Assembly (NCBI GenBank): GCA_951406725.2
Contig: OX597824.1
Span: 28,210,001 to 28,274,000, forward strand
Reading direction: 5' to 3'
DNA length: 64,000 bases
From: Octopus vulgaris
Taxonomy: Eukaryota
A program made the position numbers and the translations under genes. The notes under the pieces were generated by a model that worked only from the letters and a program-made list of their open reading frames with translations, did not search any database and had not been told where the DNA came from. This document shows, in pieces, positions 29,279 to 49,030 of the stretch (position 1 is its first letter; each line of letters starts with the position of its first letter).

Positions 29279-29305
29279 ATATACATATATATATATGTAT
29301 GTATG

Positions 29306-29340
<35 letters not shown>

Positions 29341-29363
29341 ATATCTATCTATCTATCTATATA

Positions 29364-30346
29364 GTTATCAGTAATAATAAAAGGGTGAAATTAATTAATT
29401 AGGGATAATTATCAATTACACCAAGTAGATTTCGGTATGTAAAAGCCCCATTCGAGGAAAATTTAAGTAATACTAAGTAATTAAGGGTTTAGCAACGAAT
29501 TGCCTCACCAACACACCGAATTTAGAAATAGCAGTCAAAGAGATATAGCTATTCCTTCTACTAAAAGGGGGATCTCAGTAAAAACACAGCACTTAAAAGG
29601 CAAACACAGACAGGTAAGAAAGAAAGAATGAAATGACGGCAATCCATCATGCAATTTTAAGTTACCTACGGACGTACGTTTCGAGATCAAGTTTTAGGAT
29701 ATCATAAGAATTAGAAAATTCTACTTTACCCATACTTCTTCTCTCATCGGCGCAGGATACTACAATTGTGAATAATTGTATATTAAATTTTGAGATACTA
29801 GAATGCGTCATCTCAACTCAGTGTCAGAGCGAGCCAAAGCATGACCAGTACCACGAAATTCAAAGTTTGAATGAAAGTTTGTGTCACCAGCCCCCTTCCA
29901 CCCGCGTGTAGCCAAGACAAAATGCTGTGGTCACTTACTGGGATAAAATATGGTTATCAGTAATAATAAAAGGGTGAAATTAATTAATTAGGGATAATTA
30001 TCAATTACACCAAGTAGATTTCGGTATGTAAAAGCCCCATTCGAGGAAAATTTAAGTAATACTAAGTAATTAAGGGTTTAGCAACGAATTGCCTCACCAA
30101 CACACCGAATTTAGAAATAGCAGTCAAAGAGATATAGCTATTCCTTCTACTAAAAGGGGGATCTCAGTAAAAACACAGCACTTAAAAGGCAAACACAGAC
30201 AGGTAAGAAAGAAAGAATGAAATGACGGCAATCCAAGGTAACTTAAAATTGCATGATGGATTGCCGTCATTTCATTCTTTCTTTCTTACCTGTCTGTGTT
30301 TGCCTTTTACTGAGATCCCCTTTTAGTAGAAGGAATAGCTATATCT
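29364..30346 (-). mobile_element. HHR element H2: 283-bp direct repeats (period 589) plus terminal inverted segment
   Basis: 29364-29646 = 29953-30235 (identical by eye); 30236-30346 is reverse complement of ~29541-29667 with a 15-bp deletion; flanked by TA/TATC tracts. Confidence 0.9.
29665..29756 (-). ncRNA. Type I hammerhead motif (CCGATGA core)
   Basis: Minus CCTGCG-CCGATGA-GAGA...TCTC-GAAA-CGTACG-TC-CGTAGG: 6-bp stem I, 4-bp stem II base, palindrome ACGTACGT, GUC site. Confidence 0.75.
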
Positions 30347-30402
30347 ATCTATCTATATATATATATATATATATATATAAACAACCATGCGTGACATCAT
30401 AA

Positions 30403-30446
<44 letters not shown>

Positions 30447-30575
30447 TAAAAAGAATTCCAACCTTGTCTGATTTTCACGTTTTATTTACAATCTTATAAT
30501 GATATATTATAAGATAATATATTATAATTGAATAAAATAAAATGAAATAGTAGAATGTTAAATATTCATTCTGAT

Positions 30576-30620
30576 TGAACTAGTACTTTCATGCATTGAA
30601 TTCTGCAATCTTCGGGTTCA
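30576..30620 (-). ncRNA. Minimal type I hammerhead motif (mirror copy)
   Basis: Exact reverse complement of 31206-31250. Confidence 0.7.
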
Positions 30621-31205
30621 TGTAGTAGTGTTGACAGTCATGCTTCACAATTTTTGACTGTAGCAAGATGAGTGATTCTGTGCTATAAATACAGCTGGGT
30701 AGGCTCCAGAGTGCTAGGTTTTGCAAACTGTATTCTGACCAATCAGTGTGTAGTATCACTCAATTACTTAAGCTGATTGGTTGGTTGAGCTGATTGGTTT
30801 AGGCATCACGCTTTGTTGGACAGGTCAAGAGTCCTGTATCTTGACCCTGGCCGAAGCAACAATAATTAAGGTGCTGACAATGATGATGATGACAATTGAA
30901 ATATAAAAATATAAAAATCTCTGACAAAGGATATTTACAACATTTCTAAAAATAACCCAACAATTGCTGCTTCGGCCAGGGTCAAGATACAGGACTCTTG
31001 ACCTGTCCAACAAAGCGTGATGCCTAAACCAATCAGCTCAACCAACCAATCAGCTTAAGTAATTGAGTGATACTACACACTGATTGGTCAGAATACAGTT
31101 TGCAAAACCTAGCACTCTGGAGCCTACCCAGCTGTATTTATAGCACAGAATCACTCATCTTGCTACAGTCAAAAATTGTGAAGCATGACTGTCAACACTA
31201 CTACA

Positions 31206-31250
31206 TGAACCCGAAGATTGCAGAATTCAATGCATGAAAGTACTAGTTCA
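31206..31250 (+). ncRNA. Minimal type I hammerhead motif (CCGAAGA core)
   Basis: TGAAC-CCGAAGA-T-TGCA-gaattcaa-TGCA-T-GAAA-GTAC-TA-GTTCA: 5-bp stem I, 1-bp stem III capped by palindromic GTAC. Confidence 0.7.
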
Positions 31251-31412
31251 ATCAGAATGAATATTTAACATTCTACTATTTCATTTTATTTTATTCAATT
31301 ATAATATATTATCTTATAATATATCATTATAAGATTGTAAATAAAACGTGAAAATCAGACAAGGTTGGAATTCTTTTTATTAATATATTCTTCTATACAC
31401 AATCACACACAC

Positions 31413-31450
<38 letters not shown>

Positions 31451-31530
31451 TCAGGCAATTCCATAACTTTTGTCCGATTTTACCTTTTTTAAAATTGAAC
31501 AAAATTCAATAGGATTTTAGAATGTCTAAA
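31451..31530 (+). mobile_element. Orphan left end of the mariner family seen at 58528
   Basis: TA-TCAGGCAATTCCATAACTTTTGTCCGATTTTACC...AATAGGATTTTAGAATGTCTAAA aligns with 58528-58607. Confidence 0.8.
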
Positions 31531-31532
31531 CA

Positions 31533-32363
31533 AGGGCAAAAGAAAAAAGATTTCTATCCCAATATGCTGAGAAAAAACTTTAAATCGTCAATCAGCACAT
31601 TATAATATACATTCACTATGAATACACGTCGTGCTGAAATCGAGGAAGGTAAGCTAACAGAATTGACGATTTAAAGTCTTTTCTTAGCATATTGGCATAG
31701 AAATCTTTTTTCTTTTGCCTTAGTTTATAATTGTTTATAATTTTCACTTTTAAAGGTACTTTAATATGCTGTCACTTTGATGAAATATTTTTTGGGGAAA
31801 AAATTTATCCTATATTAGAAGTAAATTTATTACCATTCACTTCGGGACTGCTAACCACCGAAAGGTGTGGTTCATGAGCAGTCACACGTGTGCTGAGGTT
31901 TGCTAAAGGATTTTGCATTTAGATATAACTGGGATACTTATGTGTACTCCTATCTCTTGCTTCTGCATTTTTTCACGTGTGCTGTACGTATGTCATGTAT
32001 TTCTTATCGTATTCTTCCACAGAAGAGGGAAAATCCGCGGGATGAATCCCGAAATTGATTCAATACAGAGATAACGAATTAAAAAAAAGTCTGTTAGCTT
32101 GACTTCCTCGATTTCAGCACGACATGTATTCATGGTGAATGTATATTATAATGTGGTGATTGACGATTTAAAGTCTATTCTCAGCATATTCGCATAAAAG
32201 TCTTCTTTTCTTTTGCTCTTATTTATAATTGTTTAGAATTTTCATCTTTAAATGTATTATATGTTTCCACTTTGATGAAATATGTTTTGGGAAAAAGTTT
32301 TATCCTATATTAGAAGTAAATTTATCACCATTCACTTCGGGACTGGTAAGTTGTGGTTCATGA
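31533..32363 (+). mobile_element. HHR element H4: inverted segment + ~200-bp direct repeats (period ~497) with decayed HHR (~32009-32068)
   Basis: 31533-31660 is reverse complement of ~32090-32220; 31662-31877 repeats at 32159-32363; CAGAAGA-GGGA...TCCC-GAAA at 32020-32054. Confidence 0.8.
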
Positions 32364-48608: not shown

Positions 48609-49030
48609 GAAGTCGGCCGTATGCTAGAAACAGATCATCAACGATCAAACTACAAGGAAATTCTCTAGAGGAAAAATCCAGCGAAACACCGGAACCAAAT
48701 TTAGCGGGCAGGACAGATGAAAATTTATATAAAAAACAGAATTAAATGCATACCTCGGTTTCGGCCTTTAACAAAAGAATTACTTACGTAATTCAAATGT
48801 CCGTGCTTCTTCAGTGCATTCGTTCATTGTAATGTAAACTGAAAAACTAACCCCAGCTTTCCGTGCCTTGATCATTGATGATCTTTTCTAGCATACGGCC
48901 GACTTCCTAGCAGTAAGCCCTGCCAATATACACATATATTAGAATTTTCGCTGACTTCTCAGATTTTTTGTATGCTGGACTACTGGTTTAAATTGATATT
49001 AAAATTGATATTAATTTATCTCCCTCATTA

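Follow-up and report, generated by a model that had tools for sequence, protein, structure and literature searches.

The window analysed here, a stretch of 64,000 nt from the 2.8 Gb genome of Octopus vulgaris (contig OX597824.1, positions 28,210,001–28,274,000), contains an insert that lies between TA-rich microsatellites and consists of about one and a half tandem copies of a 589-nt unit joined to a short inverted arm of the same sequence (Table 1). The unit includes a predicted type I hammerhead ribozyme, and no long open reading frame (ORF) was found in its six-frame translation. As judged from its sequence, the insert fits a new, young, ORF-less tandem family of a known class, the non-LTR retrozymes (LTR, long terminal repeat): it comprises tandem units with a hammerhead core, does not code for protein, and has a tandem rather than an LTR layout, although no search was aimed at a primer-binding site or polypurine tract. 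It also has the attributes of sequences mobilized by Penelope-like elements (PLEs), namely a partial tandem, an inverted 5′ copy, a tail at one end only and a microsatellite target; the ORF for reverse transcriptase (RT) and GIY-YIG endonuclease that characterizes an autonomous PLE is absent from it. We propose, with a probability of about 0.68, that the insert is a young retrozyme copy made by a Penelope-like RT-endonuclease, which would have primed both (TA)n strands on a single RNA, linear and likely multimeric, with a 5′ end that the ribozyme had probably cut. An initial annotation of this DNA had recognized the PLE-type layout and suggested a recent insertion, and both are supported by the data below.

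Positions in the unit are numbered on the ribozyme (minus) strand, r1 (29670) being the first base past the predicted cut, r307 corresponding to 29364 and r308 to 29952. Read on that strand, the insert is composed of a (TA)n flank, the inverted arm from r130 to r4, the main arm from r25 through a whole unit to r307, and a (TA)n(GATA)n flank. The inverted arm is 111 nt long and has a 15-nt deletion, unique to this insert among the 117 family loci described below, as well as a further 1-nt deletion; its outer end has TATATCT in common with the (TATC)n flank. No microhomology is present at the arm–arm junction (30236), and the offset between the two arm stops, r25 and r4, is +21.

The initial annotation had drawn attention to the proximity of the inversion breakpoint to the predicted cleavage site, and its coordinates hold. 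Cleavage after the minus-strand GUC would yield a product starting at 29670 (CGUAGGUAAC), and the segment from 30236 is equivalent to minus-strand sequence beginning at 29667, which lies exactly 3 nt past the predicted cut. The direct repeats show zero mismatches at a period of 589, and element sequence rather than a TA run occupies the internal junction, as had been claimed. A single coincidence of this kind is weak when taken alone, since by our own arithmetic, with two breakpoints and 589 possible phases, it has a chance of about 3%.

Table 1. Features of the insert and its predicted ribozyme (window positions; r, unit numbering)
Feature	Position	Strand	Evidence
Left target microsatellite, (TATC)n(TA)n	29286..29363	none	
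Main arm, 1.48 units, phase r25 to r307, ending at site B	29364..30235	minus	
Single 589-nt unit, GC 37%, no ORF	29364..29952	minus	
Direct repeat copy 1, 283 nt, identical to copy 2	29364..29646		
Direct repeat copy 2	29953..30235		
Inverted arm (r4 to r130; two deletions, of 15 nt and 1 nt); TATATCT microhomology at its outer end, which is a non-standard site	30236..30346	plus	
Right target microsatellite	30347..30381	none	
End site A (r197–210), family hot spot; unused as an end in this copy	29461..29474	minus	
End site B (r297–312), used by this copy; ATAT microhomology with flank	29359..29374	minus	
Region r109–291, ~78% conserved with sister family; likely cis-element bound by RT	29380..29562	minus	z −2.8
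Type I hammerhead (predicted)	29665..29756	minus	motif and covariation
Stem I	29756–29751 paired with 29670–29665	minus	
Core CCGAUGA (U4C)	29750–29744	minus	
Stem II, enclosing long extension	29743–29740 with 29686–29683	minus	
GAAA	29682–29679	minus	
GUC, preceded by short palindromic stem III	29673–29671	minus	
Predicted cleavage site (r1); 5′ stops of the family form a hot spot at r1–8	29670..29671	minus	

A DNA search of the genome with the element returned 2216 candidates, of which the best 40 were scored; nearly all of the matches listed were 95–100% identical. Exact-pattern searches gave 160, 648, 275, 262 and 1216 matches, the 648 being those of one 26-mer and the last pattern also taking in a related subfamily. 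A total of 117 loci were parsed, comprising the 40 top-scoring ones, which are biased to long arrays, and 77 taken by pattern order along the first chromosomes; they contained 216 segments, of which 8, shorter than 30 nt, were dropped. TA-type microsatellite was present at the main-arm end in 116 of the 117 loci and an inverted arm in 80. The longest array has 10.4 units, and the hammerhead core is present in the units read, about 160 in number.

Three related families were also observed, with units of 591 nt (L210–L309; 1760 candidates), ~555 nt (L310–L339; 1745 candidates) and 594 nt (L370–L408), and with canonical, U3-A8 and CUGAAGA cores. The 591-nt family (family 2) was represented by 94 loci, after removal of 6 duplicates from 100; it is older, with noisier ends, and its core is mostly canonical in the few cores read. 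The 594-nt subfamily, 84% identical and with a mostly canonical core, was held out; 39 loci were fetched and 3 segmental duplicates dropped. Four of its loci (L402–L405, near 216.17–216.19 Mb of contig C1) represent one insertion in three to four copies produced by local segmental duplication.

The strongest result of this study, unseen in the initial annotation, is the pairing of arm ends. Outer ends cluster at two places in the unit, A (r185–215) and B (r285–320), which account for 112 of 117 main-arm and 67 of 80 inverted-arm ends. Where an inverted locus has both ends at these hot spots, one is A and the other B in 60 of 63 cases in the focal family, 44 of 46 in family 2 and 13 of 13 in the held-out subfamily (117/122 overall), and the same was true of all 16 loci picked by a pattern upstream of both sites, where an AA pair would show. 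Divergence is 0.50% between opposite arms of one locus and 0.39% between tandem units, compared with 1.93% between different loci. Among 54 two-arm A/B loci, the B stop lies 0–40 nt behind the A stop in 23 and ahead of it in 2. These observations, of arms that share variants and often stop together, fit a model in which the two target strands were primed on the same RNA and B lagged behind A. They match the behaviour in vitro of the anole PLE protein, for which the available text of PMC11167929 describes two internal start sites bounding the tail, extension of both strands and a predicted dimer. The one-sided tail itself was already known descriptively (PMC8557442, PMC3846280).

The stops at the inner ends of the arms were analysed by treating each segment as one cDNA run and counting its passes over the cut. 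In the 117 loci, 18 of 189 passes stop within r1–8, against 2.7 expected (p 7e–10), the best of all 589 windows, whereas no stop falls in the 13 nt ahead of the cut (r577–589) and 171 passes read through. The excess is also seen in the 77 pattern-chosen loci (12 vs 1.6), and when one stop per locus is compared with the local rate over r9–190 (15 vs 3.6, p 5e–6), the flanks of these loci being unrelated. Stops were located at r1 (three copies beginning exactly there), r2 (two), r3 (three), r4 (two), r6 (one), r7 (four) and r8 (three), so that r1–4 alone holds 10, against 1.3 expected. Both arm types contribute, as do first (14/116) and second (4/43) passes, with none in later passes (0/30), and the stops thus do not reflect a preferred length. 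Replication was mixed: the held-out subfamily repeated the excess weakly, with 4 stops against 0.7–1.3 expected, depending on the background (p 0.005–0.044), and family 2 showed no significant excess. Two breakpoint clusters in the first 40 loci, at r45–51 and r281–287, were unremarkable in the full hazard scan, and a possible ligation scar at r1 (4 of 142 bases discordant, in 2 loci only, at a CpG) was not accepted.

The initial annotation had attributed the template's 5′ end to self-cleavage, and had proposed mapping the breakpoints of other copies relative to the hammerhead. The pile-up at r1–8 supports the attribution, although only about 10% of passes stop there. It is likely, then, that cleaved ends are real but a minority, most breakpoints being unrelated to the cut. 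Given these family statistics, the coincidence at the focal insert is more than chance, and its r4 stop probably reflects a cleaved end, as estimated from the background rate. In the literature searched, which left most subscription papers outside its coverage, no published mapping of insertion stops to a ribozyme cut, and no A/B pairing, was found.

The ribozyme was predicted from its parts. All elements of the type I hammerhead core (CUGANGA, GAAA and NUH, with three stems) are present apart from U4, which is replaced by C. Rfam gave no hit at gathering level in the window and, when E values as high as 10 were admitted, no hammerhead but for the most part chance matches of hairpin type to the fold-back; the call therefore rests on motif and covariation. 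In a six-row alignment, two rows of which are short at the 3′ end, stem I, whose sequence differs between the three families, shows double changes in 4 of 6 pairs, and pairing is kept in 90% of cells, compared with 14–41% in slid controls; the first pair of stem II is broken in families 2 and 3. The U4C change was found in 156 of the 159 units read, which rules it out as a defect private to the focal copy, while related subfamilies have canonical or U3-A8 cores. U4C reduces hammerhead activity in vitro, but a viroid that has it is served well enough in vivo (PMC3088659, in the part available). Self-cleavage of the focal RNA is a prediction, backed indirectly by the excess of stops and by covariation.

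The initial annotation had also suggested a circular or multimeric template. The linear multimer fits better, in that ordered, non-identical units were copied by both arms at several loci; a circle is unsupported for the focal insert, since a closed molecule would offer no end at r1. If a ligated 589-nt monomer were reverse-transcribed by rolling circle, with r1 stops coming from unligated monomers, this would account for the ~90% read-through with perfect junctions (275 exact genomic matches across the site) and for private variants present in every unit of homogeneous arrays (4/4 in L040, 5/5 in L042, 5/5 in L053), and circles of animal retrozymes are formed in vivo (PMC7229834). It is, however, unlikely to be the source of the arrays in general. 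Second-pass stops at r1–8 and the focal insert itself require a free end past one unit, and a derived variant lies at the same unit rank in both arms of L053, where it is an 8-nt insertion unique to that locus, and in the weaker cases of L042 (a CpG) and L036 (a homopolymer). Such sharing may also have come from gene conversion between the arms, from assembly error or from jumps made precisely from one linear monomer to another. Periodic or interior variants were observed in L034, L047, L048 and L051, with periods of 3 or 2 units noted for L047, L048 and L034; they suggest multimeric (possibly circular oligomeric) templates or later local duplication, and they show that long arrays are not simply copied from a circle. 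The order of the unit variants and the stops on second passes make linear multimers, cleaved in part, a better candidate than monomer circles, while circles may have given homogeneous arrays such as L040. Four sequencing runs presumed to be RNA were considered, all in the form of assembled contigs, and a contig of one of them (X1) crosses the 589-nt junction; since genomic tandems hold the same junction, it is uninformative on circles or expression.

The stops at r1–8 could instead have arisen where the RT stalled at stem I, or where the AT-rich quasi-palindrome r7–18 folded back, with the ribozyme playing no part in template ends. The predicted pairing of r1–6 (0.93–0.99), the seven of 18 stops at r7–8, the core U4C and the lack of a significant excess in family 2 are in keeping with this explanation, but predicted pairing is uncorrelated with stop rate (rho −0.03), and the concentration in r1–4, the three stops exactly at r1 and the empty stretch just upstream speak against it; we consider it quite improbable. 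Formation of the inversions by antisense-template self-priming or cDNA snap-back (the model of PMC3846280), in place of priming on both target strands, is very improbable: near-symmetric fold-back junctions with loops of 0–30 nt occur in 30 of 70 simple inversions, and an antisense-template hairpin would likewise leave the A arm longer, but stops at a cut in the sense strand cannot be explained by an antisense template, the offset expected from snap-back of the B cDNA is opposite to that seen (23 vs 2), snap-back of the A cDNA cannot supply r202–305 in sub-unit inserts, and many arms differ in length by hundreds of nucleotides.

Priming of both target strands on a linear multimer would proceed as follows. 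Tandem copies would be transcribed as multimers, in which the weak hammerhead, to go by the stop statistics, would cut about one junction in ten, so that some templates start at r1 with uncut ribozymes inside. Both target strands would then prime internally, normally at A (r~201) and B (r~305), as the observed pattern of ends suggests. The two cDNAs would run to the 5′ end of the RNA, B usually trailing A as in the observed offsets, and might be joined head-to-head by microhomology or templated repair. In the focal copy, the B arm would have covered 1.5 units before stopping at r25, and the second arm would have stopped at r4.

Several observations weigh against this proposal. The second arm of the focal insert does not start at site A, and about half of the A/B pairs are uncoupled in stop position. 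In family 2, offsets are 11 vs 6 (of 39; p 0.33, not significant) and stops in r1–12 number 4 against 2.2 expected (p 0.19), with 40 of 43 passes reading through. The stops at r7–8 lie at the edge of the predicted helix. The U4C core lowers activity in vitro (PMC3088659), and ribozyme mutants were without effect on PAc insertion in vitro in the portion of PMC11167929 available. Finally, no homology of the unit was found to any PLE among 30 plus 14 GIY-YIG loci (two of which overlap) and 5 loci of the PLE that adjoins the insert; 150 of the 6136 GIY-YIG candidates were scored, and a partner may lie outside this sample.

At least two young PLEs with RT and GIY-YIG domains, which we take from their Zn-finger linker to be of the Neptune clade, are present in the genome. 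One adjoins the insert on its right, where positions 30429–31397 (like L410–L415) represent the inverted termini (435-nt arms, 99% identical) of a very young, apparently autonomous element. It gave 1184 candidates, the top 40 being ~100% identical, with a 4271-nt tandem period, an upstream ORF followed by RT-GIY-YIG, a tail of ~27 nt at one end only, and a minimal hammerhead-like motif (CCGAAGA..GAAA GUA) whose core is of the U4C type, as in the focal unit. The other (L190–L199, e.g. L192:1967–6894) is a two-ORF element with many intact 781-aa frames and, ~70 nt short of its end, a hammerhead-like motif of degenerate U3-A8 type. The unit has no sequence in common with either, and both were rejected as sequence-related partners; matches in L167 and L186 proved to be separate insertions of sister families, and the sequence upstream in L329 is single-copy. 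A PLE is probably the mobilizer, to go by the architecture of the insertions.

Other features of the window were noted. Positions 31527–32349 hold an older partial tandem (spacing ~496, 82–90% identical) with an inverted segment and a PLE-like layout, and the minus strand at 48750–48820 carries a further hammerhead motif with a canonical CUGAAGA core and a 6-bp stem I. More unrelated hammerhead motifs with long stem II extensions occur in the flanks of L163, L167, L168, L197 and L201, which had been picked for other reasons; this suggests that the genome has many hammerhead-bearing families of this sort. The fold-back at 30130–30346 forms a ~90-bp hairpin, below threshold against miRNA models, and loci of this kind could give double-stranded RNA if transcribed.

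In the available parts of the literature, circles have been proposed as templates (PMC4209133, PMC7229834), as has antisense self-priming (PMC3846280); the role of the hammerhead in endonuclease-bearing PLEs is called unclear (PMC8557442) and is said to lack evidence from living cells (PMC4209133), and the only in vitro system could do without the ribozyme (PMC11167929). How the inverted repeats and the one-sided tail originate is likewise unsettled, and hundreds of near-identical copies provide a genomic readout of template ends. The end pattern likely records how this class of element copies into genomes. A wider proposal, that the insertions document a PLE mechanism in which an RT-endonuclease dimer uses two fixed sites of a single RNA to prime both strands and so makes the inverted arm and the one-sided tail in one event, in which a hammerhead kept weak on purpose trims multimers to define template 5′ ends yet leaves templates longer than a unit, and in which circles are not the main intermediate, is tentative and somewhat more likely to be wrong than right. 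Because the RNA is short and its A, B and r1 are defined, double priming and the choice between circle and multimer are directly testable, and the three related families form a natural series in which core activity can be set against insertion anatomy.

In the twin priming of L1 elements, a 5′ inversion results when the second target strand is primed at an internal point of that same RNA. The focal family differs in that its two proposed priming sites are both internal and fixed, its arms overlap so as to form a duplication, and poly(A) is absent. Among Chlamys elements, non-autonomous ones such as MRC1 resemble it in lacking autonomy and in their head-to-tail multicopy insertions with pseudo-LTRs; they differ in that most, as described in the available text, have no canonical hammerhead, and in their 3′ similarity to autonomous partners, which was not found for the focal element (PMC8557442). 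Endonuclease-bearing PLEs of the Neptune type, so far as PMC8557442, PMC3846280 and PMC11167929 describe them, share the partial tandem with an inverted 5′ copy, the targeting of microsatellites, a pair of internal end sites with a hammerhead upstream of them, and a tail that is present at one end only; unlike them, the focal element has neither RT nor endonuclease, its tail is ~100 nt as against 30–40, and it has no nucleotide homology to the autonomous families examined. The closest likeness in content is to the metazoan non-LTR retrozymes (PMC7229834; bioRxiv 10.64898/2026.07.22.740005), which in the available text are ORF-less tandem units of less than 50% GC with one type I hammerhead per unit, dispersed as monomers to multimers and coexisting with PLEs. 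At 589 nt the focal unit exceeds the typical 150–450 bp and lies inside the 51–972 bp of bioRxiv 10.64898/2026.07.22.740005. It is known here from genome sequence alone, and departs from the retrozymes described in those sources in having the U4C core throughout the family, in the long extension of its stem II and, unlike the circles proposed for them, in an insertion anatomy that favours linear multimers.
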